DNA from: a virus
Taxonomy: Duplodnaviria; Heunggongvirae; Uroviricota; Caudoviricetes
IMG/VR virus record: IMGVR_UViG_2713896898_000008
Coordinates: 1-31,078 of that record
DNA: 31,078 nucleotides
Strand: one strand, 5' to 3'
Made by a program: the position numbers and the translations under genes. Of the stretch, positions 3,945 to 20,274 are shown piece by piece (position 1 is the first letter of the stretch; each line of letters opens with the position of its first letter). Under the pieces are notes generated by a model. The model had not been told where the DNA came from. It made no database searches and worked only from the letters and a program-made list of their open reading frames with translations.

Positions 3945-3953
3945 GGAGAATAA

Positions 3954-4223
3954 ATGACTTATAACATCACTATAGGAAACAAAACTATTGAAATAACTGA
4001 AAGCGGATACAACATTTTAAAAGCTATTTTGGACATAGAGTTTTCACCACCGACAGTGGTTAGCTTTTGTAGTTTAGGCGGCTACAGCGCACAACACGTA
4101 AATCATTGGTTAAATCATTTTACATCGTTCGGTGTGCTGGATTATGAAGGGATTAACAGCACTACATTTCGTCTTTTGAAATTAAACAAAGATTTTGAAT
4201 TGTTTCTCACAAACAATCAATAA
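3954..4223 (+). CDS. hypothetical protein (89 aa)
   Basis: ORF with SD aaggag upstream; same-strand operon context. Confidence 0.4.
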   Translation: MTYNITIGNKTIEITESGYNILKAILDIEFSPPTVVSFCSLGGYSAQHVNHWLNHFTSFGVLDYEGINSTTFRLLKLNKDFELFLTNNQ

Positions 4224-4320
4224 CAACAGATCGGGCAATACATATGGCAAATGCATTTATGGCGATATTCATCGTAACAATGGCGTCCAGTTTTTATAAT
4301 CCACATAAAAAGAGGGAAAA

Positions 4321-4704
4321 ATGGGAAGAAAGAAAAAGAACAACTTAAAACGTATTGAAAAAAACAGTAATTTCAATTCAAAAAGACAACGTCCACCGAC
4401 ACACACCAATAACGAAATTCCAGGGGAAGAGATAATCTTTATTCTTGAAACAGAATCCCCTGAATTAAGTGATGAAGAATTAGAAATAATCCAATCAATG
4501 CCAGGCGTTTACTTTCGCCCAAGAACAAGAAAACAAACTATCATTTCTGATGGCACTCTGAAACGTTGGCAGCTTTTAGGGTTTAGCTCCTATCATCATT
4601 TTTTGGGATTTAACGCTTTCAATAATTGTGTAGGTGGTGCATCGGAAGTCGATCTGATGGCTCATTTAGAAGATACATTAGCTTCTAACAAACGTTCTAA
4701 CTAA
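4321..4704 (+). CDS. hypothetical protein with lysine-rich N-terminus (127 aa)
   Basis: ORF preceded by aaagaggg SD-like sequence; AT-rich codon usage consistent with neighbours. Confidence 0.4.
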   Translation: MGRKKKNNLKRIEKNSNFNSKRQRPPTHTNNEIPGEEIIFILETESPELSDEELEIIQSMPGVYFRPRTRKQTIISDGTLKRWQLLGFSSYHHFLGFNAFNNCVGGASEVDLMAHLEDTLASNKRSN

Positions 4705-4719
4705 TAAAATGATGGGTGT

Positions 4720-4965
4720 ATGTATAAGCGCCCAATGAAAATATTCAAAAAAGGAAAAATAATGATTGGCTATATTCAAGAAACACAATTATTTCAGATG
4801 ATCCTGTCTGATGCAAAAAACTATGCAGAGTTAATTCGGCTGGCAAAAGAAACAGAAGACTACGAAGCATTAGAGCGTTACCGTGATGAAGTGCTGACGC
4901 TCAAGACACCTTTTAACATCGTATTGAATATGATTAATGATGCATTACAAGGAGAATACGCATAA
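4720..4965 (+). CDS. hypothetical protein (81 aa; alternative start at internal ATG 4762)
   Basis: ORF in same-strand cluster; stop overlaps next start (ATAATGG). Confidence 0.4.
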   Translation: MYKRPMKIFKKGKIMIGYIQETQLFQMILSDAKNYAELIRLAKETEDYEALERYRDEVLTLKTPFNIVLNMINDALQGEYA

Positions 4966-5264
4966 TGGAAGAAGATATTAGCAATGCAATGGAACAACTT
5001 TTAGATCTGACTATCTCACTACAAACAAGAATAAATCAAGCCTATTCAGATTTATGCGATTACACGCTCTCTCAATGCGTTATTAGCTTAATGAAGGTGA
5101 ATGTAAGCCTTGACGATTTTATCTCTCTGGTGAGCGTATCAGAGGACGATGCAAAACAGTGTAATCAAATCATCACAGACATCGCCACCACGTTAAAGGT
5201 TGCAAGTGAAGAGATTCAGCAATTAGTAGATGATTTAGCAAAAAGTGCTATTTTCTCTAAATGA
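4965..5264 (+). CDS. hypothetical acidic protein (99 aa)
   Basis: ORF translationally coupled to upstream gene. Confidence 0.4.
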   Translation: MEEDISNAMEQLLDLTISLQTRINQAYSDLCDYTLSQCVISLMKVNVSLDDFISLVSVSEDDAKQCNQIITDIATTLKVASEEIQQLVDDLAKSAIFSK

Positions 5265-6248
5265 TAATGAAAATTATTTGCATTTATAATGATTTTGTTA
5301 TATAATAATTTTAGGGGTAGATAAAAAGATTTTAGTTGGTGTTAATCCTTCTACTGTCATAAATCCCTGCATATGGAAGGTGATAGCCTCAAAGGTTGAG
5401 TGGCATTAACCTCTAACAAATATTACCTTCCATCTCTCAAGAAGTTTTAGAATAATCATAACTCCCTCTTTGATTGTTGATTGTTTCTACGTTGTGTTGA
5501 TGAATGTTGTTAGGCATTGTGCTTAATTTTGATAAAAGCGGGTAGGTGTTATCTCCTTGCCCTTCCCGCTCTTATTTTTCATCTATGCTTATCCTAAAGC
5601 TCCTTATTTTGTCAGAAAACATTAAAGAGCCTTACACTGATAGTTATATTTTATAACTATTTACTAACATCATTAAACTATTATTTAATGACAGAAGTTA
5701 GTAACAGAATAATCTATTAAGTTGTTGTCAAAAACAATCATCTGCATAGCGTTAGCCGCAAGCAGAGAGAGTTTAGCTAAGAATGGTGCAATAAACTTTG
5801 GAAATATTGATAGCAAAACGGGTTTTATAGAATGCGGATCTATAAGCTTTGGTTGTAAAAACGATTTTCTGAAACGGTAGATTACTGTTGGTGTAGTTAA
5901 TCATTATTAAAAATTTAATCTGTGAGTAGATTGGAATAGTGATTCCTTAAAATCTGACTGGTGCATCCACACCATGAAAGATAGCGGTTGGCCACCGCGC
6001 CCCGAATAGATATTCCTGATTGATTCCGCATGTTTTCCTAAGAGCATGTTTTCAGGAGTATCTATTCACCCTTTAAGCATATCATCAAGTATATTTAAAA
6101 AGTGTATTTGCTGATATGTTTAATCCTCTTATAGTTTAACTTATCAATTATGTAATTGCCCGCACGTTAAAGCCCCTTTGCTGGTCAGAATTAACCTCTT
6201 ACGGCATTGGGGCTTTTTATTTGTCTGGCACTAACAGGAACATTATTT

Positions 6249-6446
6249 ATGAAACAAGAAATGATTATCAGCAAAGACGGGGAAACGATGATTGTTAGTG
6301 ATGAAAACCTCATTAAGGTTGCCGCACTGTTGGGAGTTACTCCCGAAAGTCTTCGTTCTACCACTGCTCAATTATTTAAATCGGCTGATGCGGTTAGTCT
6401 TGCTGATGCCCTTAAATCTAAAATTAAACAACTGAAAGGAAAATAA
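6249..6446 (+). CDS. hypothetical small protein (ORF-track 6207..6446; internal ATG 6249 preferred)
   Basis: first gene of a tight five-gene plus-strand operon. Confidence 0.35.
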   Translation: MKQEMIISKDGETMIVSDENLIKVAALLGVTPESLRSTTAQLFKSADAVSLADALKSKIKQLKGK

Positions 6447-6450
6447 TCTT

Positions 6451-6834
6451 ATGGCTAACCCATATGGAAAATTAAAAGCAGTGAATGCGGATAACTCCCG
6501 TTCACGCTGTAAGGTAGTAGCTTACGCTGCTGATCCAGTGCTGCAAGATCGCCTCGTCAAACTGGCTTCACCTCTCACTGACGATCTTATTGTCGGGGCT
6601 TTGCTGAAAGCCGATGGCACCAAAGCAACAACCGCATCTGATATTGCTCACGTAGTAGTTGAACCGGCTTATGAAGGACAGGAAAGCGTAGTGGTTGCAC
6701 ATCCTACTTTCGTTATTCTGGCTGAAGATGGGATTGAATTTAACAGCATGGAAAAGGCAAGTGTTATTGCAAAACTGCAATCTCTCGGCTTTGTAATTGC
6801 TGGTTATGAAGAACTTGCGATCCCTACGACTTAA
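6451..6834 (+). CDS. hypothetical protein (127 aa), possibly virion-associated
   Basis: 4-bp spacing from upstream gene; SD aaaggaaaa; sits immediately before a capsid-like 343-aa gene. Confidence 0.45.
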   Translation: MANPYGKLKAVNADNSRSRCKVVAYAADPVLQDRLVKLASPLTDDLIVGALLKADGTKATTASDIAHVVVEPAYEGQESVVVAHPTFVILAEDGIEFNSMEKASVIAKLQSLGFVIAGYEELAIPTT

Positions 6835-6848
6835 CAAGGAAAATAATA

Positions 6849-7880
6849 ATGAATGATTTATCAACATATTTTGGCGTTAATACTGCGGTAGTAACTCCAT
6901 TTGCTTATGAGAATGCACTTAATACCCTGATTACTAATCTCGATCTGTTCGATGTGCAATATCATACAGAAAACAGCATTCTTCTTACCGACCTGATTGA
7001 TCAGTTTGTGCAGGTAGCTGGGGAAACCTCGCCTTACGCTCAAAGCGACTGGAACGCCTCTAAACGTCAGGAATGGTCAAACAAACTTTTCCAGATGAAA
7101 CACGTCGGCAGTATTAACGCTGTTACTTCTCGTGACCTGGAACAATACAGCCGCCAATATCCAAACCGTTCTGATGCTATGCTGGTAGCGGTTAATGATT
7201 TCTCTGAGGCTCATTACCGTTCACACGCAAACCGTGTTGAAGTGGATCTGATTACCGCGCTGCTGGGCCTGAAAGTTGAATCTGAATATGCCGGACAAGG
7301 TGATCTCGACTTCCTCGACGGTCAGGCTAAAACCACGGTACCCGCTATCGACTTTGCATCGACTACTGTTAACCCGTTCCTTGCTATTCGTAAAGCGGTG
7401 CGCTTACAGAGTGAAAAGCTGGGGTCTGGTCTTGCTGCAAAGCGAACTGGTGTAATTATCTTTGCTGCTGGCACTGCTGCTGATGGTTTGTCATCTAACC
7501 CGCTGATCAGTGACATGGTGAAATATGCAGGCGATGCGAGTGCTACGGCCCTGTTTACCCGTATGGTTGATTCTAACCCAGCCTATGACTCTTTCCAGAT
7601 TGGTGGGATCACTGTTATTGATGTGTCAATGTTTCCTGAGATTGTTGCTCACATCGGAGAGAACGGTTTCGCAATTGTTCCGGTAATGGATAAAGCGGCA
7701 CAGTGTTACCAGCTTCATAGCGGCGTTGGTGTGCGTCATGCTGAGTTAGGTCAAGATGCCGTGTTGCATCACCAATATCTAATCAAGGATGAATTCCAAT
7801 TCCCATCTGTGGTTACTGAGACATCTTATCTGCCAGTAAACAACATTCCGCAAGCTATCATCTTCGGATCTGCTGCGTAA
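6849..7880 (+). CDS. hypothetical protein (343 aa), composition reminiscent of a major capsid/coat protein
   Basis: SD aaggaaaa upstream; Ala/Gly/Ser/Thr/Val-rich with no TM segments or enzymatic motifs; functional assignment is inference only. Confidence 0.5.
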   Translation: MNDLSTYFGVNTAVVTPFAYENALNTLITNLDLFDVQYHTENSILLTDLIDQFVQVAGETSPYAQSDWNASKRQEWSNKLFQMKHVGSINAVTSRDLEQYSRQYPNRSDAMLVAVNDFSEAHYRSHANRVEVDLITALLGLKVESEYAGQGDLDFLDGQAKTTVPAIDFASTTVNPFLAIRKAVRLQSEKLGSGLAAKRTGVIIFAAGTAADGLSSNPLISDMVKYAGDASATALFTRMVDSNPAYDSFQIGGITVIDVSMFPEIVAHIGENGFAIVPVMDKAAQCYQLHSGVGVRHAELGQDAVLHHQYLIKDEFQFPSVVTETSYLPVNNIPQAIIFGSAA

Positions 7881-8031
7881 TAAAGCGTTAATAGACGATT
7901 CCCCATCGGGGCAATAAGGGTAAAGGGATTAACTAACCTGTAGGCGCAAATACAGTAACGAATCTCTTTGCCCTTTTTGTTTTTCTACTGTCTACAAACC
8001 CAAATAAAAATATATATGTGAGAGAAAACCA

Positions 8032-8229
8032 ATGAATACAGAAAACCCACAATCCTTTATTCTTAAGGCTGTAAAAGAACTGGCAGCTATTAGCGAGGAA
8101 TCAGTTATAAACACATCGGCGCTTTGCCGCCTTTTAGAAATTGATGCAAATAATGTGCGCCAGCGTGTCTTTCAGACTGGGTGCAGCACTTTCGAAGCAA
8201 TTCAATACTATTGCTCTAAAAAACAATAA
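8032..8229 (+). CDS. hypothetical small protein (65 aa)
   Basis: ORF within operon. Confidence 0.35.
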   Translation: MNTENPQSFILKAVKELAAISEESVINTSALCRLLEIDANNVRQRVFQTGCSTFEAIQYYCSKKQ

Positions 8230-8263
8230 TAAACAACAATCATAATACAGGGAAACAATTAGC

Positions 8264-10105
8264 ATGTTAGAACTTAACGTCAGCCGCTTATCAAACGTTG
8301 TCACCTTCCAGGTTGATCGACCATCATTAGAGAAAGCAAAAGCAGAAGTAGAAAAACTTCGTAAACAAATGGCGGCGGTGAAAGATATAGAATTGCGTGT
8401 TAAGACACATAAACAATCAACTTCTAAAGCAAAAAAAGACGTAGACGATATTGCTAAAAAGCAAGCACAGGCAGATAAAGCCAATGCTAAAGCACAATTA
8501 GCCGCTCAACGTGTAGTTGCAAGAGAACAAAAAGCCCTGGCAGCACGCAAAGAGAAGGCAGACTTAAAACTGTTAGACGTTGGATCAAGCATTAGTGCAT
8601 TGCACCGCCTTTCTGTAGCGGAACAATATAAAGCTATTGCACAGGCTAGAGAAATTGCCCTCCAATATGAAAGAGGAGCTATTAGTCTGGCACGTATGAA
8701 TAGCCAAATGAAACGCCTACAACAGCAACAACGTAAGATTAATGGCAATCGTAACGCTCACGCTAAAGCCTATGCACCTGTTAAGGGTAGCGGGAGTATT
8801 GGCGGCGGTGCTGCGGCTGTTATGCTGGGTGGCTTAGGCGCTGGCGCTACGTATATGGCTATGAGCAAAGCCTCTGAATTTGTTACTAACAGCTTTGCGA
8901 ATGCTGAAACGCTGGGTGAATTGTATAGCCGTGCGAAGCTGGGCGGTGTAGACGTTAACCAGATGAACAATATTGAGCAATGGGCCTACAAAAACGGCGT
9001 TGATTCAATGATGGGGGATCAAGGTAAACGTAAGTATCTCGATCAGATGAAAGATGTGCGTGAGCGTGCAACCAAAAGCTATGATGAGGCTGAATATGTA
9101 GTCGATAAAAAAACAGGCAAAGGTGAATGGAAGGGCGGCGATAGCGGCATCAATACTTTAATGAATGAAGGATTCTTAACTAAAAAGGATCTAAAAGACT
9201 TTGCTGATAATCCGGCTGGTCTGGTTAGTAAAGCAGTTCAGGGAATGGTGAAGAAAGGCTATTCAGATGCACAAATCGGTAGTCGTCTGGAAGATCTGGC
9301 TGATGATTTGATGCTCACCTCTAAATACTGGACACGCTCCGCTAAAGAAGTGGAACAATCAGCACGAGAACAACGAGAATCAGGGCGCTGGGTAACACAG
9401 GCACAACAGGAAAGCGTTATTAAATTCCGTGAACTGAATAATGCACTTAGTGGGCTTTCTGACTCACAAGGGATCGCCTTTGTTGATGGCTTTATGAAAT
9501 CTCTTGATCCGAAAGTGATTGAAGAGTTTAAAAAGAGCATGGTTGCAATGCTGCCAATGTTTACCAAATTAGGCGAGGCTATCGGCGGATTGGTTAACGC
9601 CGTAATGAAAACAATCAACTGGCTGATGAAAAACGACGAGAAGACGGAAGCTATTCAGAAGAATTTAGGGGATGCACCGCCACTATCTAACGAAGGAATG
9701 AAGCAGAATCTTTCTAATCTCACTCCTGATCAATATAAAGGCGCTGGCACCGGAACAACTAAGCCAGATAACAGCAATTCCCTGGTTAACACTATTAAAA
9801 GCTGGTTTATGCCAGAAGAAACGGTAGGTGGGGCGCAGGCTGTAAATCAATACAGTCTCGAAGGACAAAACATTGCAAATCTGAAACAGAGTGCAGCACA
9901 ACAAGCTTTCAAGGCTCCTTCTTACACCTTTGCACCTGTTATTAACTTCAATCCAGAATTACAAGTAAATGCAGAAGTGCCGCTAACTATCGAATCAGAC
10001 ACCGGACGATTGAGCGAATTTATCGACTTCAAATCAAAGGCATCCTCCGCTGAGTTTAGCAAGCTATTAACGCTGGGTGTTATGTCAGGCGGGTCAACCT
10101 ATTAA
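8264..10105 (+). CDS. hypothetical 613-aa protein with long N-terminal coiled coil and Gly-rich hydrophobic segment (tape-measure / ejection / TolA-like architecture)
   Basis: residues ~20-180 are Lys/Ala/Glu/Gln-rich heptad-like; GSGSIGGGAAAVMLGGLGAGATYMAMS hydrophobic stretch; function inferred from architecture only. Confidence 0.5.
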   Translation: MLELNVSRLSNVVTFQVDRPSLEKAKAEVEKLRKQMAAVKDIELRVKTHKQSTSKAKKDVDDIAKKQAQADKANAKAQLAAQRVVAREQKALAARKEKADLKLLDVGSSISALHRLSVAEQYKAIAQAREIALQYERGAISLARMNSQMKRLQQQQRKINGNRNAHAKAYAPVKGSGSIGGGAAAVMLGGLGAGATYMAMSKASEFVTNSFANAETLGELYSRAKLGGVDVNQMNNIEQWAYKNGVDSMMGDQGKRKYLDQMKDVRERATKSYDEAEYVVDKKTGKGEWKGGDSGINTLMNEGFLTKKDLKDFADNPAGLVSKAVQGMVKKGYSDAQIGSRLEDLADDLMLTSKYWTRSAKEVEQSAREQRESGRWVTQAQQESVIKFRELNNALSGLSDSQGIAFVDGFMKSLDPKVIEEFKKSMVAMLPMFTKLGEAIGGLVNAVMKTINWLMKNDEKTEAIQKNLGDAPPLSNEGMKQNLSNLTPDQYKGAGTGTTKPDNSNSLVNTIKSWFMPEETVGGAQAVNQYSLEGQNIANLKQSAAQQAFKAPSYTFAPVINFNPELQVNAEVPLTIESDTGRLSEFIDFKSKASSAEFSKLLTLGVMSGGSTY

Positions 10106-10152
10106 TCATCACTGTGGGGCTGTTTAGCCCCCTTAAATAAGGATTACAAATT

Positions 10153-10830
10153 ATGGCAATGGGTCCGTTAACCATTGGTCGCCCGACTGAGGCGAAAATC
10201 AACAGCACAAGCAACGATAGCAACGGTAGAACAACCAAAGGGGGTAACGGCTTTGCGATCATTACCTCTAATCTCGGCAGTGGTGCAAATGCTGCTTACA
10301 ATGACTACCAGGCATTATCATTTGATAGCGTGGAATCGACGAAAGTTAGCAGAAATGCGGACGTTACAAGCTATGCCGTCGAATCAGGATCAGAAGTTAG
10401 TGATCATGTTCAAATACGGAATAACAAGTTCACATTACAAGGGCGTATCTCTGAAACCGTATTGAAGCTCAATCCTGATATGATTAAGAATGCTGGAATT
10501 AACGGCAATCGACGTATGCTTATGCTTGAATACCTAAATCAGTTGATGGACAGTCGCCAACCTTTCCTACTTGTCACTGAGTTAAAAAATTATGACAACG
10601 TTGTGTTAGTTGGCATGTCTTACGAAGAAGAAGCAAGCGAAAGCCTATTGTTTACTCTTGATTTTGAGCAAATCCGTCTTGTCTCTAAAGCAACTACAAG
10701 CGCAATTGCGGTAAAAACAGCACCAAATAAATCTGTAGGAGGCCAGGTTAAAATGCAGGTAAATACAACAGAACAGAAAAATCAAAAAAGCCCAGGGCAA
10801 GACGTTGTAACGCCAGTATTTAAACAATAG
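10153..10830 (+). CDS. hypothetical protein (225 aa)
   Basis: last gene of operon; followed by hairpin 10872-10903. Confidence 0.45.
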   Translation: MAMGPLTIGRPTEAKINSTSNDSNGRTTKGGNGFAIITSNLGSGANAAYNDYQALSFDSVESTKVSRNADVTSYAVESGSEVSDHVQIRNNKFTLQGRISETVLKLNPDMIKNAGINGNRRMLMLEYLNQLMDSRQPFLLVTELKNYDNVVLVGMSYEEEASESLLFTLDFEQIRLVSKATTSAIAVKTAPNKSVGGQVKMQVNTTEQKNQKSPGQDVVTPVFKQ

Positions 10831-10871
10831 CCTTAAACGCCTATGAAACGCTCTGTAACGAGATAATCATA

Positions 10872-10903
10872 AAAGAGGCATCAGTCTATATTGAAGCCTC
10901 TTT
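10872..10903. terminator. bidirectional stem-loop between convergent genes
   Basis: AAAGAGGC...GCCTCTTT stem; T-rich tract on both strands (TTTATTA on plus, TTTTATGATTAT on minus). Confidence 0.5.
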
Positions 10904-10910
10904 ATTACGT

Positions 10911-12188
10911 CTATAGCGTTGTTTTACGCCTTAAATTTGATTTTTTATTGATTGATAAGCCTTTCTCTATTTCAGGGTAGCGTAAAAGCTCAATATATTT
11001 TTTAAGCTCTATTGGAGAAGCTGCATTTTTGCTATATGTGCGGAATGTTTCTGTATTGCCGCGTGTATGGCCCAGGAGAAGGGCGATCCTGTCTTCTGGA
11101 ATTTGATTTCGATCAAGAAGCTGTGCTACTCCGTGTCTCAGAGAATGAAACACTTTCCTTTCTGTTCCCTTTTCCCCTAAAGCCTTTCGTTTAGCTCTTG
11201 TAAATCGTTGTGTATGCCACGTAGAGCGTTTACCGTCAGCACGTTCTGTAATGCTGGCGTGATAGAACAAAAAGCCATTGTGAGGCTTTTCACGCAGCGA
11301 CAACACCAACGGAGTGATAAGGTTATGCACAGGCACAACACGTGCCGCAGCTTTCGTCTTTCCCTGTGTGATTTCAAAACACAGCACACCTTCGATCTCT
11401 TTCACATCGTCTATTGTGAGACTTGCTATCTCATTGATCCGCATACCTGTATATAAACCGATAAGACACAAAGCCGTCATTTCTTTGTTTTCTGCTGAAT
11501 TACCGGAAAATACTTGCAACACCTGCAATAGCTCTTTGTTAGAAAATGCCTCGTAGCTCTCTCTACTTTGTGCCACATCAAGCCTATGCCCTCGCCAGGG
11601 GGAGAGCGCCCTTTCTGGCGCATCGTGGTAACGTGATGAAGCTAATTCCCATAGCTGGGCCATTGGACTGATATAATTTGCAATTGATTGTTGTGAAAGA
11701 GTTTTTTGCATGTGTTCAATCCAGCCTGTAACAGTGGTGCGGCTTACATCTTGCAATGCAATATCAGGCTTTTTACGGTAGGAGAGAAACATCTCTACCG
11801 CTTTTCTTGCCTTAGCTAAAGTGGCTGGCTTCTTCTTCGTGCTGTTAATTGTCAGGTAGATTTCAAGAATTTTAAGCAATGACGGACACGAAGACGCTGT
11901 ATCTTGCACTCTGGTAGCTGTTTTGGCGTATTTAGCCTTACTGCGTAACAGTTCCAGCGTGTTTTCTATTGTGCTGTTTACAGGGGCAACACTCTCCCGT
12001 AAGCAATGGTATTCATCTGCAATCTGATCACGCTTTCTACGTGCAACACGAAGATTACTTGTGTGTAGACTTCTGACAAACGTCCTTTTTCCTTCAAAAA
12101 AGGGCTGCATATACACAGGCAGCGTGATCCTTAAATAGTAGTTACCGTAAGAATCACAGATTAAGTATTGGTTAGGCTTGTATCTCAT
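10911..12188 (-). CDS. tyrosine recombinase / phage-type integrase (second integrase; ORF-track 10911..12275 begins at TTG)
   Basis: C-terminal catalytic signature HSLRHGVAQ ... LLGHT ... TYSK (R-H-R-Y family); preferred start ATG 12188 has SD GGAG 6 nt upstream. Confidence 0.8.
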   Translation of the reverse strand: MRYKPNQYLICDSYGNYYLRITLPVYMQPFFEGKRTFVRSLHTSNLRVARRKRDQIADEYHCLRESVAPVNSTIENTLELLRSKAKYAKTATRVQDTASSCPSLLKILEIYLTINSTKKKPATLAKARKAVEMFLSYRKKPDIALQDVSRTTVTGWIEHMQKTLSQQSIANYISPMAQLWELASSRYHDAPERALSPWRGHRLDVAQSRESYEAFSNKELLQVLQVFSGNSAENKEMTALCLIGLYTGMRINEIASLTIDDVKEIEGVLCFEITQGKTKAAARVVPVHNLITPLVLSLREKPHNGFLFYHASITERADGKRSTWHTQRFTRAKRKALGEKGTERKVFHSLRHGVAQLLDRNQIPEDRIALLLGHTRGNTETFRTYSKNAASPIELKKYIELLRYPEIEKGLSINKKSNLRRKTTL

Positions 12189-12363
12189 AAAATCTCCGGC
12201 TAAAGTGTCGGAGCGTTTGTAATGTGAAAATTGATTGTGACGCATAGAAAATGATGATTTTTCTATAAGATTCAATCAATTAGTAATGGTCGTAGGTGAT
12301 GGCATTAACACGAGATTAATCGAGTGTTTTACTCCTATTATCGGCACCATTTAAATCAATAAG

Positions 12364-13524
12364 TTATCTCACATTTAAGTAAACCACGTTTTCCTCTTGT
12401 GCCGTATTTGTGCCATTGCGACTTATAATCGCATCGATTTTGCTCGCGTGCTCAGTGAGATGCCCGGCTGAAAGGTGGGCGTATCTTTGAACCATTTCGA
12501 GAGTTTCCCATCCTCCCATCTCTTTAAGTGCAAGAAGAGAGACACCGGACTGAACCAGCCAGCTTGCCCAGGTATGCCTCAGGTCATGGAAGCGGAAGTT
12601 GCTAATGCCTGCCCGCTTTAACGCTCCCTTCCATGCCTTGTTGCTGTCGGTTCTCATCTTCCTTACCGCTGCTGTTTTTGTTCCGTCGTTTCGGTAGGCA
12701 GGTTTGGTGTGGACAAATACCCATCTCTTATGGAGCCCCTGCTGTTTTCTTAATATCTGGCATGCGGTTTCGTTAAGAGGAACTCCGATCGCATTGCCGG
12801 CTTTTGTTTCATCAGGGGGCATCCATGCCATTTTCTTATCCAGATCGACCTGTGACCACTCAAGGTCTGTAACGTTGGAGCGGCGAAGACCTGTAGTGAT
12901 TGCGAACATGACCACAGGGAAGAAATGAGGAGCAATTTCTGCAAACAGGCGCTTCGATTCCTCCTCTGTAAGCCATCTGATTCGTCCATTCTTAACGCGT
13001 GGTGTTGATATTTTTGGCGCCCTGTCAAGCCATCCCCATTCAACAGCCATATTGAGAATAGCGCGAAGTATTGCCAGATGCCGCATCTTCGTTCCTTTGC
13101 TTGCCAGCTTTGGTTTATACTCCGGCACTGGCTTGCCAAGCCGCAAACACCTGTCCCGGCTCATCTCCCAGTTCAGGCGATGGCGGCGGTTTTCCATCCC
13201 GTCTACCGCCTCCATTATTTTTTCTGTTGTTATGTCAGAGAGAATGGTTTCTCTGAAGTGCAACATCCAGAACGATATAATGCTCTTGTCATCATCAATG
13301 GACTTCTTATCCGATTTCTCACGCAGCCACCGTATGCAGGCTTCCTTGAATAGCTTTTTCGGTGATTCCCCGAGATTTTTTACTCTCCACGCTTCTGCTT
13401 TCAGACGATCGTGAAGTTCTTGCGCTTGCCTTTTGTCCGATGTTTCAAGAGAGCGTCTAACTCTTGATCCATCTGGCGCGACGAAATCGCAGTGCCACGT
13501 GCCACCGCGTAGTTTGATTGACAT
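12364..13524 (-). CDS. int: lambdoid phage integrase (tyrosine recombinase)
   Basis: 386 aa; catalytic motifs TGLRRSN, FHDLRHTWAS, VQRYAHL; strong SD AGGAGG; immediately downstream of an excisionase and Red operon as in lambda, but sequence is not lambda Int. Confidence 0.9.
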   Translation of the reverse strand: MSIKLRGGTWHCDFVAPDGSRVRRSLETSDKRQAQELHDRLKAEAWRVKNLGESPKKLFKEACIRWLREKSDKKSIDDDKSIISFWMLHFRETILSDITTEKIMEAVDGMENRRHRLNWEMSRDRCLRLGKPVPEYKPKLASKGTKMRHLAILRAILNMAVEWGWLDRAPKISTPRVKNGRIRWLTEEESKRLFAEIAPHFFPVVMFAITTGLRRSNVTDLEWSQVDLDKKMAWMPPDETKAGNAIGVPLNETACQILRKQQGLHKRWVFVHTKPAYRNDGTKTAAVRKMRTDSNKAWKGALKRAGISNFRFHDLRHTWASWLVQSGVSLLALKEMGGWETLEMVQRYAHLSAGHLTEHASKIDAIISRNGTNTAQEENVVYLNVR

Positions 13525-13748
13525 GCTTTAACCTCCTGCATATCAACCGCATTCACCGCGCTATTGTGTCTCACAGACTTAAGCGCCGCAATGCAGTCTG
13601 ACTTGCAAATGCGATATGGGCTTTTAGGTTTATCTGGATTTATCTTTGCGGCCTGAAGTCGTCCACTTCGTATCCACTGCGTGATAGTGCCTTTGTCTAC
13701 CTTCAGATACGATGCTGCCTCTTCACGAGTGAAGATTTCTTCTTCCAC
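13401..13748 (-). CDS. xis: excisionase-like HTH protein
   Basis: N-terminal FTREEAASYLKVDKGTITQWIRSGRL HTH typical of Xis/AlpA family; positioned directly upstream of int (overlaps int start by ~40 codons, so C-terminal extent uncertain). Confidence 0.6.
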   Translation of the reverse strand: MEEEIFTREEAASYLKVDKGTITQWIRSGRLQAAKINPDKPKSPYRICKSDCIAALKSVRHNSAVNAVDMQEVKACQSNYAVARGTAISSRQMDQELDALLKHRTKGKRKNFTIV

Positions 13749-13817
13749 TTGGAATCTCCATTTATTGAGTTGGTATTATTGCGGTAGGTCTGGATATCAT
13801 TGAGAAATGAACAGGCC

Positions 13818-14096
13818 TCATCGAGTGTGAGGCTGTGTGATTCCATGGTTACCTCTGTTTTTTGAGCGCATGGAACGTAACTTCTTAATGTGTTCTGCCG
13901 TTTCGATCTCTTCTGCTATCCGATCTGCATCAGCTTTATTCACAGGTTCAAAGTCATGATTAAAGCGGAACATGCTGGCGATACATGTTCTGCCTTTTCG
14001 GATGTAGTGAACTTTGTTGTGGGTAGAACGCAGGATTTTGCAGGGAGTGCCGTGGTGGTCGACGTACCAGGTGTTAGGAAAAATGATTCTGAACAT
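13818..14096 (-). CDS. hypothetical early-left-operon protein (92 aa)
   Basis: ORF in the exo-xis accessory region. Confidence 0.4.
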   Translation of the reverse strand: MFRIIFPNTWYVDHHGTPCKILRSTHNKVHYIRKGRTCIASMFRFNHDFEPVNKADADRIAEEIETAEHIKKLRSMRSKNRGNHGITQPHTR

Positions 14097-14143
14097 TTTT
14101 ACACCTCAGTTGGACGATGTTGAAATTTGCTGCTTTGAGGCCA

Positions 14144-14362
14144 TCACAATCCCCATTGTTTGTTCTTAAGTTCGATCTCCTCCTGGCAACTTGCACAAGT
14201 CCGACAACCCTGAACGGCCAGGCGTCTTCGTTCATCTATGGGGTCGCCACACTCACAACAATGAGTGGCAGATATAGCCTGGTGGTTCAGACGACGCATT
14301 TTTATTGCTGTATTGCGCTGTAATTCTTCGATTTCTGATGCTGAATCAATGATGTCTGCCAT
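14144..14362 (-). CDS. TraR/DksA-family C4 zinc-finger protein
   Basis: 72 aa; CxxC...CxxC (CCECGDPIDERRRLAVQGCRTCASCQ) characteristic of phage TraR-like proteins. Confidence 0.65.
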   Translation of the reverse strand: MADIIDSASEIEELQRNTAIKMRRLNHQAISATHCCECGDPIDERRRLAVQGCRTCASCQEEIELKNKQWGL

Positions 14363-14460
14363 CCTCCATTAATCCCTGAATTGTTGGTTAATACGCTTGA
14401 GGGTGAATGCGAATAATAAAAAAGGAGCCTGTAGCTCCCTGATGATTTTGCTTTTCATGT

Positions 14461-14679
14461 TCATCGCTCCTTAAAGACGCCGTTTAACATGCCGATCGCC
14501 AGGCTTAAATGAGTCGGTGTGAATCCCATCAGCGTTACCGTTTCGCGGTGCTTCTTCAGTACGCTACGGCAAATGTCATCGACGTTTTTATCCGGAAACT
14601 GCTGTCTGGCTTTTTTGATTTCAGAATTAGCCTGACGGGCAATGCTGCGAAGGGCGTTTTCCTGCTGAGGTGTCATTGA
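14461..14679 (-). CDS. hypothetical protein (72 aa; ORF-track 14461..14775 trimmed to internal ATG MTPQQ)
   Basis: upstream part of the track ORF overlaps the Dam gene, so the internal start is preferred. Confidence 0.35.
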   Translation of the reverse strand, partial: SMTPQQENALRSIARQANSEIKKARQQFPDKNVDDICRSVLKKHRETVTLMGFTPTHLSLAIGMLNGVFKER

Positions 14680-14752
14680 ACAAGTCCCATGTCGGCAAGC
14701 ATAAGCACACAGAATATGAAGCCCGCTGCCAGAAAAATGCATTCCGTGGTTG

Positions 14753-15310
14753 TCATGCAGCCTCCCGACGGGCAAGAATCCTTGAGCCGAACGCCATCAA
14801 CTCTCCACGATCAACGGTCGTAAAGTGGCAGTGTGTACGGGGGTATGGGTGCCAGATAATGAGCATCGAGCCTTTATTATTTCCACTGACGGGTTTCCCG
14901 GTGAGTGGGTTAATAAATGCCAGTCGTCCTGCCGTGATGAATCTGACCTCACTGGCGGTTTGTATCGCTTCATGAAACCATCCGACAGATGTGTCAGCAG
15001 GCAATAACATTACACATCCCACACTACTGAATTTGTTTTCAGTGGCTGCCTTTTTCACAAAAGGGGAAATATTGCTGTATGGTGGATTCAACCAGACATA
15101 ACCAGAGGCACATCCCATTGCTTCAGGCCATGAAGTGGTTAATGTGTTCTGCTCCTGTGAGATAAAAAGCCGACATAGTCGGTTTTTTTCGCTGGCGGCA
15201 GCATCAAGTTGAAAAACGAACTCTGCATTAAGCGCAGCAAAAATCTCTGGTGGTGTGCGCCAGCTGTCGCGATGTTCGGCAGGAGTATTGCTTCCGGTGA
15301 AATCAGTCAT
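14753..15310 (-). CDS. phage DNA N6-adenine methyltransferase (Dam-like)
   Basis: 185 aa; WRTPPEIF N-terminus and NPPY catalytic motif (WLNPPYS) typical of phage Dam methylases. Confidence 0.8.
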   Translation of the reverse strand: MTDFTGSNTPAEHRDSWRTPPEIFAALNAEFVFQLDAAASEKNRLCRLFISQEQNTLTTSWPEAMGCASGYVWLNPPYSNISPFVKKAATENKFSSVGCVMLLPADTSVGWFHEAIQTASEVRFITAGRLAFINPLTGKPVSGNNKGSMLIIWHPYPRTHCHFTTVDRGELMAFGSRILARREAA

Positions 15311-15464
15311 ACAGCCCCCGTTTATTATTTATCACCTCAGCTAGCCGCTGTGCTTTCAGTGGATTTCGGATAACAGAAAGGCCGGGAAATACCCAGCCTT
15401 GCTTTGTAACGGAGTAGACGAAAGTTATCGCGCCTACCCGGATATTATCGTGAGGATGCTTCAT
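15303..15464 (-). CDS. hypothetical small protein (53 aa) coupled between exo and the Dam gene
   Basis: ATG overlaps exo stop; its TGA overlaps the Dam ATG (ATGACTGA); not in ORF track (size cutoff). Confidence 0.3.
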
Positions 15465-16141
15465 CGCCATTGCTCCCCAAATACAAAACCAATTTCAGCC
15501 AGTGCCTCGTCCATTTTTTCGATGAACTCCGGCACCATCTCGTCAAAACTCGTCATGTACTTTTCATCCCGCTCAACCACGACATAATGCAGTCCTTCAC
15601 GTTTCATACGCGGGTCATAGTTGGCAAAGTACCAGGCATCTTTTCGTGTCACCCACATGCTGTACTGCACCTGGGCCATGTAAGCCGACTTTATGGCCTC
15701 GAAACCACCGAGCCGGAACTTCATGAAATCCCGGGAGGTAAACGGGCATTTCAGCTCAAGGCCGTTGCCGTCACTGCATAAACCATCGGGAGAGCAGGCG
15801 GTGCGCATACTTTCGTCGTGATAGATGATCGGGGATTCAGTAACATTCACGCCGGAAGTAAACTCAAACAGGGCTCTGGCGTCGTTCTCGTACTGTTTTC
15901 CCCAGGCCAGTGCTTTAGCGTTAACTTCCGGAGCCACACCGGTGCAAACCTCGGCAAGCAGGGTGTGGAAGTAGGACATTTTCATGTCAGGCCACTTCTT
16001 TCCGGAGCGGGGTTTTGCTATCACGTTGTGAACTTCTGAAGCGGTGATGACGCCGAGCCGTAATTTGTGCCACGCATCATCCCCCTGTTCGACAGCTCTC
16101 ACATCGATCCCGGTACGCTGCTGGATAATGTCCGGTGTCAT
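15461..16141 (-). CDS. exo: lambda exonuclease (Red alpha)
   Basis: 226 aa, near-identical to my recollection of lambda Exo ([35 protein letters not shown]...FVFGEQWR). Confidence 0.95.
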
Positions 16142-16923
16142 GCTGCCACCTTCTGCTCTGCGGCTTTCTGTTTCAGGAATCCAAGAGCTTTTACTGCTTC
16201 GGCCTGTGTCAGTTCTGACGATGCACGAATGTCGCGGCGAAATATCTGGGAACAGAGTGGCAATAAGTCGTCATCCCATGTTTTATCCAGGGCGATCAGC
16301 AGAGTGTTAATCTCCTGCATGGTTTCATCGTTAACCGGAGTGATGTCGCGTTCCGGCTGACGTTCTGCAGTGTATGCGGTATTTTCGACAATGCGCTCGG
16401 CTTCATCCTTGTCATAGATACCCGCAAATCCGAAGGCCAGACGGGCACACTGAATCATGGCTTTATGCCGTAACATCCGTTTGGGATGCGACTGCCACGG
16501 TCCGGTGATTTCCCTGCCTTCGCGAGTTTTGAATGGTTCGCGGCGGCATTCATCCATCCATTCGGTAACGCAGATCGGATGATTACGGTCCTTGCGGTAA
16601 ATCCGGCATGTACAGGATTCATTGTCCTGCTCAAAGTCCATGCCATCAAACTGCTGGTTTTCATTGATGATGCGGGACCAGCCATCAACGCCCACCACCG
16701 GAACGATGCCGTTCTGCTTATCAGGGAAGGCGTAAATTTCTTTCGTCCACGGATTAAGGCCGTACTGGTTGGCGACGATCAACAATGCGATGAACTGCGC
16801 ATCGCTGGCATCACCTTTAAATGCCGTCTGGCGAAGAGTGGTGATCAGTTCCTGTGGGTCGACAGAATCCATGCCGACACGTTCAGCCAGCTTCCCTGCC
16901 AGCGTTGCGAGTGCTGTACTCAT
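16138..16923 (-). CDS. bet: lambda Beta single-strand annealing protein (Red beta)
   Basis: 261 aa, matches lambda Bet ([68 protein letters not shown]...); ATGA overlap with exo. Confidence 0.95.
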
Positions 16924-16928
16924 TCGTT

Positions 16929-17225
16929 TTATACCTCTGAATCAATATCAACCTGGTGGTGAGCAATGGTTTCAACCATGTACCGGATGTGTTCTGCCAT
17001 GCGCTCCTGAAACTCAACATCGTCATCAAACGCACGGGTAATGGCTTTTTTGCTGGCCCCGTGGCGTTGCAAATGATCGATGCATAGCGATTCAAACAGG
17101 TGCTGGGGCAGGCCTTTTTCCATGTCGTCTGCCAGTTCTGCCTCTTTCTCTTCACGGGCGATCTGCTGGTAGTGACGCGCCCAGCTCTGAGCCTCAAGAC
17201 GATCCTGAATGTAATAAGCGTTCAT
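16929..17225 (-). CDS. gam: Gam, RecBCD inhibitor (short GamS form)
   Basis: 98 aa [21 protein letters not shown]...[10 protein letters not shown] matches lambda Gam C-terminal 98 residues. Confidence 0.9.
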
Positions 17226-17300
17226 GGCTGAACTCCTGAAAATGGCTGTGAAAATAGCGCCCGCGAAATGCCAGGCTGATTAGGAAAACAGGAAAGGGGA

Positions 17301-17507
17301 TTAGTGATTCAGGCCGTTGCCGCGTCCGTCGAGAAAAACTTCCACGAGCAAATCACGGGTATAAGTGCGCTCGATGCCGCGATGCAGATAAAGCCGTCCG
17401 CGTAAATTAGCTGATGCAGTCCAGTTACCATCTTTGTGTTTGACCAGCATTCCTGGCATGACCGCACCTCGATTAACGGTCTGCGTTCCGTAATGTTGAT
17501 GAACCAT
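17301..17507 (-). CDS. hypothetical early protein in the kil/cIII position (68 aa)
   Basis: good SD (CAGGAG) 6 nt upstream of ATG; first convincing ORF downstream of the pL-like promoter; identity not recognised. Confidence 0.5.
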   Translation of the reverse strand: MVHQHYGTQTVNRGAVMPGMLVKHKDGNWTASANLRGRLYLHRGIERTYTRDLLVEVFLDGRGNGLNH

Positions 17508-17774
17508 AAAAACTCCTGCCCGTAAGCTGGGCTGCTGAACAAATAAGGGGTTGCGCAGTATCTGGCGGTGGATGGCCGCCGGTTGTCATAACTAAGCCGC
17601 CTCGTTGAAGCAACTGAGGTATGAAGTGTTGATTTGATTTCAGCTGGTCACACCGACGTTCACGCGTCCGCTTCACCCCTCGCACTCCCCGGAGCCTGCT
17701 GAAATTCAAGCTGCGGATCTAAGCGGTCATCGCAACGGTGAATCAGGTGGTTGCCGTATCGTTGTGTTGTTGCG

Positions 17775-17803
17775 ATATGGTGATAATAGCTATTGCTATT
17801 GGT
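17775..17803 (-). promoter_or_regulatory. pL-like early-left promoter with overlapping operator repeats
   Basis: minus strand -35 TTGATA (17803..17798), 17-nt spacer, -10 TATTAT (17780..17775); operator-like TTGCTATTG motifs (17781-17794, 17811-17819) also present in the cI-cro intergenic region. Confidence 0.6.
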
Positions 17804-17950
17804 GATATCAATACTTGTTGCTATTGGTTGATGTGTTTTGATATTAAATATTTGATAGCAAAAAGAATTAATTTTGTGACTTGCATCGCATAGCGATAAC
17901 TGAAGCGAGGTTGTGGTGGTTTTTTGAACGGTGTGTGATGAGGGGAGGGG

Positions 17951-17980
17951 ACAAAAGAAAACCCGGCACGGTGGCCGGGT
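17951..17980 (-). terminator. rho-independent terminator ending the cI-proximal operon
   Basis: minus strand ACCCGGC-CACCGT-GCCGGGT followed by TTTTCTTTTGT; immediately after stop of the 310-aa gene. Confidence 0.75.
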
Positions 17981-17987
17981 AGCATCA

Positions 17988-18920
17988 CTATTCGATTTTT
18001 TTAACCATGTAGTTACGTCGTGATGTTCCTAATCTTTCATTGTGAATCTCAGAAACGCTTACTACGAGCGATATTCGTTCACCAACTTTATATTTACTTT
18101 GAATTTCTCCTAACATATCAATCGGATAAGAAGCCTTTATTTTTCCAAGCTCGCTTGCAATCTCCAATTTTCCGTACATGGATAAAATAGCAAGTTCGCC
18201 TGATATATGCTCATCCGGTAGCTGAATGACCTTCGTTAAAGCTAAGCGAGCATTCAGTTTTTTTATATCTTCTGAAGAAATTGACACTTGTCTGGTACCA
18301 TCACTTAAAGGTCCAATCCAAGTAAGATCAAAGTTAAGACTATATTTTTCGCACTCATTTATGATGTTTTTTAGGTTAGCTGTTGATTGCGAACCAATTT
18401 CGGCAATTTTAGCCGTGAATGTTTCTTCATCAATGGATGAGAGTAGTGCAAAAATCTCCTTAACAGCATGACTGGATACTGTTTCGATGAGCTCGCAAGA
18501 ACCAGTAGAAAAAGTAACACCTAACTTCGTCGAACCTGGACGCAAGTCTGCCAATCTCATGTCTAATGATTTTTTAACATCAATCGGCACACGACTAGAA
18601 TCTTTCCCAGATCCAAGTCGGTAAACTGCTTTCTGTACAAGGGATGCGAGATTACCTGAAATTACAGATAGAATATCTAACGGAATAGACCCGAAATCGA
18701 CCAAAACACCTTTTAATCTCAACTCCATGAAATCACGTAAAGGATGTTGGTTATCGATTGCACGTTGTCTCTCTCGGAGATCGCTCAGATGGGAGTCAAG
18801 TGATCTAAATATAATGTCATCAGCAAATGATCTCCCCTTATTTTGAGCAAGCAGATCCACATCGCGTTGAATGAACGCAATTCGCTCCTTGAGGGAGTTG
18901 AATGTTTTTTCTTCGCTCAT
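17988..18920 (-). CDS. hypothetical 310-aa protein, partner of nucleotidyltransferase-like gene (rex-position module)
   Basis: start ATG overlaps stop of upstream gene (ATGA); no recognised motifs; located between cI and pL where lambda carries rexA/rexB. Confidence 0.6.
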   Translation of the reverse strand: MSEEKTFNSLKERIAFIQRDVDLLAQNKGRSFADDIIFRSLDSHLSDLRERQRAIDNQHPLRDFMELRLKGVLVDFGSIPLDILSVISGNLASLVQKAVYRLGSGKDSSRVPIDVKKSLDMRLADLRPGSTKLGVTFSTGSCELIETVSSHAVKEIFALLSSIDEETFTAKIAEIGSQSTANLKNIINECEKYSLNFDLTWIGPLSDGTRQVSISSEDIKKLNARLALTKVIQLPDEHISGELAILSMYGKLEIASELGKIKASYPIDMLGEIQSKYKVGERISLVVSVSEIHNERLGTSRRNYMVKKIE

Positions 18921-19390
18921 AACATTACCCTCACGAGGCCTTTAGGATTCTCCTTCCGATCAAAACCAAACCACCCTCTCCAGTAACTTCGCCTTTCACT
19001 ATAATCGATTTCTGGATGATTTTCAGGCAGCAAAAGAACGTCAATGCTGTAGTTTTCTTTAATAAAATCTCTATTTAACAATGAGCTAACCAATGGCATC
19101 AGCGTGTTTGGCAAAGAGTTTAGGGCCAAATAATCGACGACCACGAGTATATCTATGTCATCAGGTTCAGGTTTCTCTGTAGTGAATGAACCATCGATCC
19201 ACACTTCAGAGAAACATAGACACTGCTGATTAACAAGTTTAAATTGCTCAATAAGCTGTATAAAATTACAGTATAGCATACTTCTTCTAACGGATTTTGG
19301 GAAGGTGTCGACACAAAGAGACTTGATGCCATCACTATCCATATCATGAAATCCTGCTGTAAGAAGAGGTGGGAAGCTAGGCTTTTCCAT
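18917..19390 (-). CDS. nucleotidyltransferase-fold protein (Pol-beta/MNT-like), 157 aa
   Basis: motif WIDGSFTTEKPEPDDIDILVVVD fits the G-S-x(9-13)-D-x-D nucleotidyltransferase signature; SD AGGA 7 nt upstream; directly downstream of cI. Confidence 0.55.
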   Translation of the reverse strand: MEKPSFPPLLTAGFHDMDSDGIKSLCVDTFPKSVRRSMLYCNFIQLIEQFKLVNQQCLCFSEVWIDGSFTTEKPEPDDIDILVVVDYLALNSLPNTLMPLVSSLLNRDFIKENYSIDVLLLPENHPEIDYSERRSYWRGWFGFDRKENPKGLVRVML

Positions 19391-19471
19391 CCTAAGTCCT
19401 TGTTTATGCCATATAGTGTTCTATTTAATATTCTTGAAAAGAGTGTGCCTTAAAAAGCTACAGGCTAATTA

Positions 19472-20164
19472 TTAACCATGCTTCCTGTACGTCTGCGGCA
19501 TGCTCCCAATAACCTTACCGAAGATGAACACCCGGTTCATCTCGTCTTTCTCGATCGGGTCCCACGGTGAGTAGCTCTTGTTATCAGAGATAACCAGTAG
19601 CTTATCTTTCATCATTTGCAGGCGCTTTACATGGGCTGTGTCGTCGTACAGAAACGCATAGATACCATCACCGTCGAAAGATTTAACCGTGATATCAACG
19701 AACAGAAGATCACCTGGTTCGATCGTTCCTGACATGCTGTCACCGCGTACGTTAATGATGCGGATATTTTCTGCCTTCCTACCATCGAACATGTGACGAG
19801 CATCGTCAAACGAGTACTCAACCGAGCGTAGAACTTCTACAAACTCACGGTTGATGACACCCGGCCCGGCACTGACTTCTATATCAAGAACGTCAATCTT
19901 GAAGTATTTGGAATGGTTGACAGCAGGCTTCCCTGATTGTTGACCGTCATTTCTCATCGGGCCTATGCCTGATGAGAGCCACTCTGTTCGAACACCCAAT
20001 GCATTAGCTATTTCAACAATTTTTGTTGAGCCGCGCGCGTTGCCGCTTGTCAGTCTCCAGATTGTGGGTTGAGCTACGCCAGACGCCTTTGCAAGAGCGC
20101 CTTGAGACATTCCAGATTGTTCCATCGCTAGGTTTAAGCGATCAGCAAGAGTTTCTTTTTTCAT
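19472..20164 (-). CDS. cI: CI-like prophage repressor (HTH plus S24 LexA-like autopeptidase domain)
   Basis: N-terminal XRE-type HTH (LADRLNLAMEQSGMSQGALAKASGVAQPTIWRL); C-terminal GDSM...K peptidase S24 motif; ORF-track 19472..20200 trimmed to ATG 20164, which lies just downstream of a TTGACC/TATAAA promoter (leaderless, as for lambda pRM). Confidence 0.85.
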   Translation of the reverse strand: MKKETLADRLNLAMEQSGMSQGALAKASGVAQPTIWRLTSGNARGSTKIVEIANALGVRTEWLSSGIGPMRNDGQQSGKPAVNHSKYFKIDVLDIEVSAGPGVINREFVEVLRSVEYSFDDARHMFDGRKAENIRIINVRGDSMSGTIEPGDLLFVDITVKSFDGDGIYAFLYDDTAHVKRLQMMKDKLLVISDNKSYSPWDPIEKDEMNRVFIFGKVIGSMPQTYRKHG

Positions 20165-20274
20165 AAGTTTTAATTTATACGCTTGCGTATTGATGGTCAA
20201 AACACGTTTTGCTATTGCTTAGGTTAATACGTATTGCTATTATTCCTTCATTGCAATACCAATAGGAATTGATA
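20165..20274. promoter_or_regulatory. divergent pRM/pR-like promoters and operator repeats (immunity switch)
   Basis: minus strand -35 TTGACC (20200..20195) and -10 TATAAA (20179..20174); plus strand -35 TTGCTT (20215-20220), 17-nt spacer, -10 TATTAT (20238-20243); repeated TTGCTATTG-type motifs shared with the pL region. Confidence 0.6.

Follow-up and report, generated by a model that had tools for sequence, protein, structure and literature searches.

A probable tandem array of an integrative island and a lambdoid prophage at the tRNA gene thrW

The viral record IMGVR_UViG_2713896898_000008 of IMG/VR (Caudoviricetes; 31,078 nucleotides, the whole of which was analysed and is called the window below) carries two adjacent tyrosine integrase genes. 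Comparison of sequences indicates that this region is most likely the internal junction of a tandem array, in which two independent integrative elements occupy the tRNA-Thr gene thrW and the left-hand one, an island, entered second. The order of the array would be proA, intact thrW (just left of the window), the 12.96-kb island, a 19-nt fragment of the 3′ end of thrW and the lambdoid prophage. Tandem arrays at tRNA genes are a well-known kind of structure, and the present one corresponds to the definition used by Islander: each member has an integrase of its own, a tRNA fragment lies between the members, each member is found alone elsewhere, and an exact empty site exists. The same features bear out the tandem integration that had been put forward in an initial annotation of this DNA.

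Integrase genes and attachment sequences

Both integrase genes are read from the minus strand and both open reading frames (ORFs) are intact, in agreement with the initial annotation, which had described two different integrases back to back. The ORF of the island begins with ATG (10911..12188, 425 aa), the form annotated in RefSeq for the identical protein, or with an alternative TTG start at 12275 (454 aa). Its product contains the Phage_integrase domain (PF00589, 1.5e-17) together with DUF6538 and the SAM-like domain Phage_int_SAM_5. The lambdoid ORF (12364..13524, 386 aa) also contains PF00589 (9.5e-35), and the two recombinases are 24% identical over 123 aa of the catalytic domain (E 2e-4). 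Among 50,697 phage records no relative of the island integrase above 28% identity was found. The stop of the lambdoid int (12364) and the start of the island int (12188) are separated by 175 bp.

The attachment (att) core of the phage had been expected at 12189–12363, and within this interval, at 12331–12349 (+), the sequence ACTCCTATTATCGGCACCA was located, which is the last 19 nt of tRNA-Thr thrW and extends from where the T-loop ends to CCA. The window contains a single copy of it, and even when three mismatches were permitted no match arose in any of 100 shuffles. ARAGORN detected no complete tRNA in the window, the first base of which corresponds, by alignment, to position 4002 of locus L001 (E. 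coli strain 503025), 606 bp right of thrW. In related loci thrW lies on the plus strand, so the 19-nt fragment has the orientation of the tRNA gene.

According to megablast, phage homology (HK75, mEp213, mEp043, HK542, ECP1 and SfX; ~98%) has its left limit precisely at 12331 and takes in int and xis, and island homology in complete E. coli genomes extends from base 1 to the core. Across 12331–13850 the nucleotide identity to int/xis of the SfX/HK75/mEp213 type is 97.7–98.4%, and the gene layout is that of mEp213, the annotation of which gives at this place an attachment site "similar to thrW".

The attP of mEp213 contains the 46-bp core ATTCGTAATGCGAAGGTCGTAGGTTCGACTCCTATTATCGGCACCA, which starts in the anticodon loop of thrW and is the published core of SfI, SfII, SfV, SfX and P22 (PMC3636060). 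In the window only the last 19 nt of this core stand next to int, with island sequence upstream of them; the upstream bases are identical to those of island-only genomes and not to the other 27 bases of the phage core. Insertion of the island accounts for the missing 27 bases, which are thus no argument against the identity of the integrase. The assumption that the left-hand element shares or abuts the phage att site held in part: it abuts the site and uses the same tRNA gene, but the att sites themselves differ (a 46-bp core versus a 19-bp repeat). Both arms of mEp213 attP contain a 20-nt unit, TTGTGCCGTATTTGTG(A/C)CAT; its P′-arm copy falls within the 3′ end of int. Such a shared repeat is the pattern expected of arm-type Int sites and presumably functions as one; its candidate counterpart in the window (TTGTGCCGTATTTGTGCCAT, Table 1) is still recognisable in the int fossil found at empty sites.

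The right arm of the island includes a thrW-like relic at 12279–12297, which is separated from the 19-nt core by a 33-nt spacer (12298–12330). The relic has one mismatch, in the anticodon; its alignment score was reached in none of 5000 shuffles, and it is unchanged in island-only genomes. In the reconstructed attP of the island, the sequence AAATCAATAACTTAGCT right of the core (left arm of the island, L001 3396–3420) resembles the phage sequence AAATCAATAAGTTATCT (50 of 5000 shuffles). The island attP thus resembles a degenerate attP of the SfX/P22 type, which suggests that the att region may be derived from such a phage, the integrase being unrelated.

Occupancy of thrW in E. coli genomes

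Three synthetic junctions were built and searched against 5,426 complete E. coli genomes. In 948 of them (at least 80% of the junction length covered) thrW continues directly into the sequence that otherwise follows the island, which is the empty site; the best matches are 100% identical. In 650 genomes, including uropathogenic E. coli (UPEC) 536, thrW is joined to window position 12350 onward, so that int stands directly at thrW (99–99.8% identity), and in at least 393 it is joined to the left end of the island. The left end alone was found in 502 genomes and some part of the island in 759. The junction of the island with int (window 12130–12560) is present in nine genomes, with int alleles of 97, 94, 93 and down to 85% identity, and a single complete genome covers at least 80% of 10000–14500 (97.4% identity). 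Over 1–12330 the island has 100% identity with E. coli AH21I008 and 99.9% with O104:H4 strains. These counts indicate that each element inserts independently and that the tandem state is rare, but recurrent; the differing int alleles at tandem junctions suggest several independent origins.

Two checks proposed in the initial annotation gave clear results. The reconstruction from which the island had been deleted is identical (100%) to the natural site in complete E. coli genomes, and the direct repeats expected to bound the left-hand element were found as a 19-bp pair in L001, at 3377–3395 (end of thrW) and 16332–16350, with a spacing of 12,955 bp. The order in this locus is proA, thrW (3320–3395), island, 19-nt copy (16332–16350), int fossil, yagP pseudogene and paoD.

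The island adjoins intact thrW in all four inspected loci that include its left end (L001, L002, L004 and L009). Its right neighbour differs between the inspected loci. A fossil int end and a lambdoid int were found there, as were a P4-like int (L010/L018), 90% identical to IntS of Sakai Sp2, and a truncated P4-like int, behind which vat is located in L004. In the three other tandem genomes inspected (L002, L019 and L020) decayed lambdoid remnants lie right of the island, and the far end of the prophage is intact in none of the inspected tandem genomes. The thrW island described in ST131 as GI-thrW (10.8 kb, type I restriction-modification) was considered and proved to be a different island.

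The "empty" thrW site is itself not pristine. A diverged fossil of ~70 bp, derived from the 3′ end of an SfX-type int (L001 16351–16420), follows the tRNA gene directly, and the truncated LysR gene yagP comes after it. In L019 (NZ_CP148493.1, 675–7442) the right-hand element is a remnant of ~6.5 kb with truncated int and xis, in which a 1,069-aa RNA-directed DNA polymerase and AbiEi/AbiEii are intact.

Order of insertion and its consequences for excision

The two integrases would act at different places of thrW. The lambdoid Int (SfX/P22 type) is expected to use the 46-bp block that begins in the anticodon loop, and the target of the island Int (DUF6538 type) would be limited to the last ~19 nt, between the T-loop and the CCA end. 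Most likely the prophage settled first, with int beside intact thrW. The island could then have entered the 3′ end of the intact gene, whereby the tRNA would be regenerated on the left and the 19-nt fragment left behind on the right. As a result, the phage attL would now be split, its crossover region being 13 kb further left, in the intact thrW, and its P′ arm (candidate sites at 12397–12416) still beside int. With attL split in this way, the prophage should not excise before the island does; its excision is presumably blocked while the island is present and would become possible after the island leaves and the joint of thrW and int is restored.

As Williams reportedly described in 2002, the crossover of tRNA-targeting integrases lies where the identity block begins, at its 5′ end. 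If this position is assumed for the lambdoid Int, insertion of the prophage first and of the island second is the only site-specific route to the observed order. The same order is fitted by the position of the island against intact thrW together with its variable right neighbour. The tandems of SfI with SfX and of Sakai Sp1 with Sp2, compared below, are in keeping with it as well.

Several points weigh against this scheme. The crossover position of an SfX-type Int was taken from the 5′-end rule; if cleavage by this Int falls inside the last 19 nt, the phage could instead have come second, into attR of the island, and attL would be intact. Both insertion orders yield the same junctions and are indistinguishable by sequence alone, and an identical array would result from homologous recombination between island-bearing and lysogenic chromosomes. 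Neither intact thrW nor the far end of the prophage is included in the window. The decayed remnants in L002, L019 and L020 fit immobilisation of the prophage, but cryptic remnants at thrW are common anyway.

Assembly of the array by homologous recombination, a lysogen and an island-bearing chromosome being brought together by transduction or conjugation, appears rather unlikely. Such recombination is frequent in E. coli; an unrelated blood isolate, in which a vat island is the right neighbour, has the same island at 100% identity, and identity across the junction reaches only 97% in the closest tandem genome. However, the junction is a clean att-type joint, so recombination would merely move the site-specific event to an ancestor, and the int alleles at tandem junctions (97, 94, 93 and 85% identity) point to several independent origins.

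An island-first order, in which the lambdoid phage entered the 19-nt fragment at the right end of the island as a secondary attB, is improbable, although it would produce junction sequences identical to those of the preferred order and the island is common at thrW (left end in 502 genomes). Of the 46 core bases the fragment retains 19; the missing 27 include the anticodon loop, the expected crossover site of this class of integrase. The relic at 12279–12297, with its anticodon mismatch, 5-nt gap and 33-nt insertion, is unchanged from island-only genomes, which indicates that no crossover took place at it. Intact thrW would have been available as the preferred target, and in the sole experimental case the incoming SfI used the site with the intact tRNA (PMC3306764).

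The suggestion of the initial annotation that the 425-aa integrase and its neighbours belong to the lambdoid phage genome, as a b-region module or a nested element, was rejected with near certainty: the adjoining genes are phage-like (capsid, tape measure, Dit-like), but none of the 272 matching phage records extends left of 12331, where phage homology has its edge, the island integrase has no close phage relatives, the integrase, capsid and tail proteins have no lambdoid relatives, and the island, far from being a conserved b-region part devoid of separate att repeats, occurs alone at thrW with 19-bp repeats of its own and an exact empty site.

If the prophage came first and the island second, as preferred here, attL of a prophage targeting the anticodon loop of a tRNA gene is open to insertion of an element specific for the 3′ end, and excision of the phage would then depend on the island. 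This would be a simple, testable control of one mobile element by another. The array is of practical interest to annotators as well: prophage finders report such arrays as a single "prophage", and IMG/VR keeps the island inside viral calls of 20–58 kb. Two matters deserve further attention: whether an island within attL locks the prophage, as predicted, and what the island is.

Comparison with known arrays

In Shigella flexneri, SfI integrates at attL of the resident SfX prophage at thrW (PMC3306764). That case and the present one have in common the tRNA gene, an SfX-like right-hand integrase and an incoming element at the attL of the resident, next to proA–thrW. However, SfI and SfX share the 46-bp core and all their att sites are complete, whereas the second element considered here has an integrase of another family and uses the last 19 nt only, and the attL of its resident appears to be split.

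In E. coli O157:H7 Sakai, lambda-like Sp1 and P4-like Sp2 stand in tandem at thrW (PMC8190617). Here too the integrases in tandem are unrelated, and a lambdoid int next to the tRNA is accompanied by a small element of satellite type. The order is reversed in Sakai, the lambdoid member being proximal and the P4-like one distal; in addition, Sp2 is a classical P4-like satellite (sid, psu, primase), unlike the thrW island.

Islander/TIGER lists 125 tandems among 3,919 islands and recognises crossover subsites in the anticodon loop or at the junction of the T-stem and the acceptor (PMC4383910). The present array shows no difference in kind from these tandems; its members belong to two different subsite classes.

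Helper-embedded phage-inducible chromosomal islands (PICIs; PMC10111431) provide another parallel, since there, as predicted for the present array, a small island lies within sequence that a lambdoid prophage needs, and function returns only on excision. These PICIs are inserted in late genes of the phage that helps them and possess the PICI gene set; in the present array attL would be the interrupted feature, and no evidence was obtained that the lambdoid prophage is a helper of the island.

Gene content of the island

The features of the window are collected in Table 1.

Table 1. Features of the junction region, the island and the lambdoid prophage (window coordinates).
Feature	Position	Strand	Basis or remark
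thrW-integrated island, ~12.96 kb in full	1..12330	+	First 606 bp and intact thrW just left of the window; 19-bp repeats, empty site
Small serine recombinase (DNA invertase), variable cargo	719..1276	-	PF00239 Resolvase 1.1e-38; phrog_125 DNA invertase 2.3e-62
Three 22-nt iteron-like direct repeats	1834..1935	+	Repeat family D1, Tandem Repeats Finder (TRF); in gene-poor stretch of ~2 kb
HTH_36 protein, weakly replication-initiator-like	3276..3944	+	PF13730 5.5e-5 (bit score under the Pfam gathering cut-off); phrog_270 replication initiation protein 3.6e-6
Island major capsid protein, 343 aa, HK97 fold, distant lambda gpE family	6849..7880	+	phrog_29 5.5e-5; homologues carry PF03864
Tape-measure-like protein, 613 aa, phi92 gp134 homologue	8264..10105	+	PDB 21vq_V 1.5e-22; phrog_16051 3.4e-34
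Dit-like tail tube initiator, 225 aa, phi92 gp135 homologue	10153..10830	+	PF21821 1.2e-27; PDB 21vq_N 7.4e-54
Island tyrosine integrase	10911..12188	-	DUF6538 type; at tRNA-distal island end, reads inward; same position and orientation in Cronobacter relative
thrW-like relic in island right arm (ATTAGTAAT-GGTCGTAGGT)	12279..12297	+	thrW positions 31–54 with 5-nt gap; local alignment
19-nt copy of thrW 3′ end	12331..12349	+	Island attR repeat; sole remnant here of phage 46-bp core
Lambdoid integrase, SfX/HK75/mEp213 (thrW-specific) type	12364..13524	-	PF00589, phage homology
Candidate P′ arm-type Int-binding repeats (TTGTGCCGTATTTGTGCCAT)	12397..12416	+	Within 3′ end of lambdoid int; 20-mer in both mEp213 attP arms
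Excisionase (HTH_17)	13401..13748	-	Overlaps int start, as in mEp213
Visible rest of lambdoid prophage	13749..31078		exo-bet-gam, cI, O/P, ren, nin region, rusA, Q; synteny with L002 annotation, Pfam

The major capsid protein of the island was matched to the major head protein of ESCO5 by hhalign (E 9.7e-5, with a probability of only 58%). Its AlphaFold model is weak (predicted local distance difference test, pLDDT, 55) and was used for the fold class only; the top Foldseek matches are all HK97-fold capsid proteins (best E 1.3e-8). No tblastn match of this protein was obtained in the 50,697 phage records. The tape-measure-like protein is ~30% identical to tape measure proteins of Stephanstirmvirinae, and the tube initiator is 53% identical to proteins of Phapecoctavirus and Justusliebigvirus. 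In the phage collection the relatives of these two proteins belong mainly to virulent myophages of the phi92/phAPEC8 group, ~130–152 kb in size. The genes of the island follow the order of ESCO5 (decoration protein, major head protein, tape measure, tube initiator); for the 127-aa protein encoded upstream of the capsid gene, identity with a decoration protein could not be shown.

Searches of Pfam and PHROGs revealed no terminase, portal, protease, lysis or head-tail connector genes in the island, and neither AlpA nor a primase was matched there when NCBIfam was added. The psu-delta-sid operon, the alpha primase and an integrase of P4 type likewise gave no matches in the island; in tblastn of the flanks right of it the sole matches were P4-like IntS, that is, a separate neighbouring element in L010/L018. 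PADLOC matched none of the island proteins, and Rfam at gathering thresholds yielded nothing in the island.

Small ORFs precede the invertase gene at the left end of the island, and several small ORFs of no known function follow the HTH_36 gene. The invertase gene is absent from the relatives of the island in Cronobacter and in Shiga toxin-producing E. coli (STEC), and no convincing inverted repeats delimiting an invertible segment were found beside it. Two long stretches of the island, 1277–2945 and 5265–6206, are devoid of sizeable ORFs. The first of them includes the iteron-like repeats, which are possibly an origin or an operator, as well as a hairpin with a 24-bp stem (1994–2046) and a consensus-like promoter near 2797–2822. 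The Cronobacter relative has gene-free gaps and iterons at equivalent relative places, and its nucleotide sequence shows no conservation with the gene-free stretches of the island in blastn or tblastx.

Island family and its possible nature

The relative in Cronobacter turicensis has the same gene order, with 42–50% protein identity, and is inserted at tRNA-Gly(CCC) between perfect 27-bp repeats, which begin in the T-loop and are spaced 13,039 bp apart. In E. coli copies the repeat spacing is 12.1–13.1 kb. Relatives of the capsid protein are present in Klebsiella, Enterobacter and Citrobacter. IMG/VR contains integrated copies of the island only, inside the 20–58-kb viral calls, and no virion-type contig of ~13 kb. 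The island is no debris of the lambdoid phage; it is a member of a conserved, size-constrained family with insertion at tRNA 3′ ends, probably mobilised by another phage. Its conserved small size, own integrase, putative replicon and subset of structural genes are indirect signs of a phage satellite.

Comparison with the four families modelled by SatelliteFinder shows that the island fits none of them. Features of P4-like satellites were not found. In contrast to Gram-negative PICIs, the int gene lies at the end away from the tRNA and is read towards the other genes, and there is no match to AlpA or a primase; homologues of a tape measure and a tube initiator are present as well, although these PICIs are defined as having no tail genes, and tail genes are forbidden components in SatelliteFinder (PMC10085698). 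Of the set expected of capsid-forming PICIs, the island has a homologue of the capsid protein only. Those PICIs are equipped with terminase, portal, protease and connectors and are devoid of tail genes; the island carries capsid, tape measure and tube initiator. Capsid-forming PICIs and the PICI-like element (PLE) of Vibrio cholerae are similar to the island in outline only, as integrative islands of conserved size (~12–18 kb) with structural genes of phage type; PLE parasitises a virulent myophage of ~126 kb.

A tentative possibility, to be taken as a lead and not as a finding, is that the family comprises undescribed satellites or decoy-type anti-phage islands of Enterobacterales, directed against virulent ~150-kb phi92/phAPEC8-like myophages (Stephanstirmvirinae). 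As satellites, the islands might use their own capsid, shorter tape measure and tube initiator to re-size the head and the tail of a lytic helper, and the copy inside attL would also gate excision of the lambdoid phage. The literature yielded nothing on the island, on its RefSeq protein accessions, on DUF6538 or on satellites together with Stephanstirmvirinae. The tape measure and the tube initiator are related to those of virulent phages under development for therapy, and, if the island is in fact a satellite or a defence island, prediction of the host range of these phages would be affected.

Alternatively, the island could be a decayed, immobile remnant of a temperate relative of phi92, its integrase being a relic. 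The small number of structural genes, the long gene-poor stretches and the failure to find terminase, portal or lysis genes are in favour of decay, which is nevertheless unlikely. Gene order and a similar size are kept down to 47% protein identity in another genus and at another tRNA gene, the Cronobacter copy has perfect 27-bp repeats and the ORFs are intact. In the four inspected loci with a left end the island stands beside an intact tRNA, as expected of an active integrator.

Lambdoid prophage right of the junction

The prophage looks intact as far as Q within the window; its late genes and far att site lie beyond the window. A large serine recombinase of 508 aa (Resolvase, Recombinase and Zn_ribbon_recom domains; phrog_95) is encoded in the nin region at 24483–26009 (+). 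Counting it and the island invertase, the window contains four recombinases. Its DNA has 34–38% GC and is part of a low-GC block at ~24300–26600, and a lipoprotein gene (26144–26500, -) adjoins it; the region could be a moron or a nested element. Splitting of an ant-like gene by this recombinase was considered and rejected, as the ant-like ORF is short and frameshifted and no second half is present beyond the recombinase.

C4 antisense RNA (RF01695, 70 bits), the only Rfam match in the window at gathering thresholds, is located at 23791–23876 (+), directly upstream of this short, apparently frameshifted Ant/BRO-N-like ORF (23923–24242). The combination resembles a c4-ant immunity module of the P1/P7 type in a lambdoid prophage.

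Between gam and cI, at 17988–19390 (-), a gene pair encodes proteins of 157 aa (with DUF6932) and 310 aa, which in PADLOC match A (E 7e-43) and B (E 4e-42) of the candidate anti-phage system PDC-M63. Three further genes (205, 114 and 249 aa; 33–34% GC) follow the antiterminator Q directly at 28630–30357 (-), the moron position at which Stx phages carry toxin genes; they have no match in Pfam or PADLOC and match function-unknown PHROGs strongly. A 131-aa ORF between ren and the C4 RNA (23174–23569, -) gives a weak match to the WYL domain (PADLOC, 5.9e-9 and 2.3e-5).

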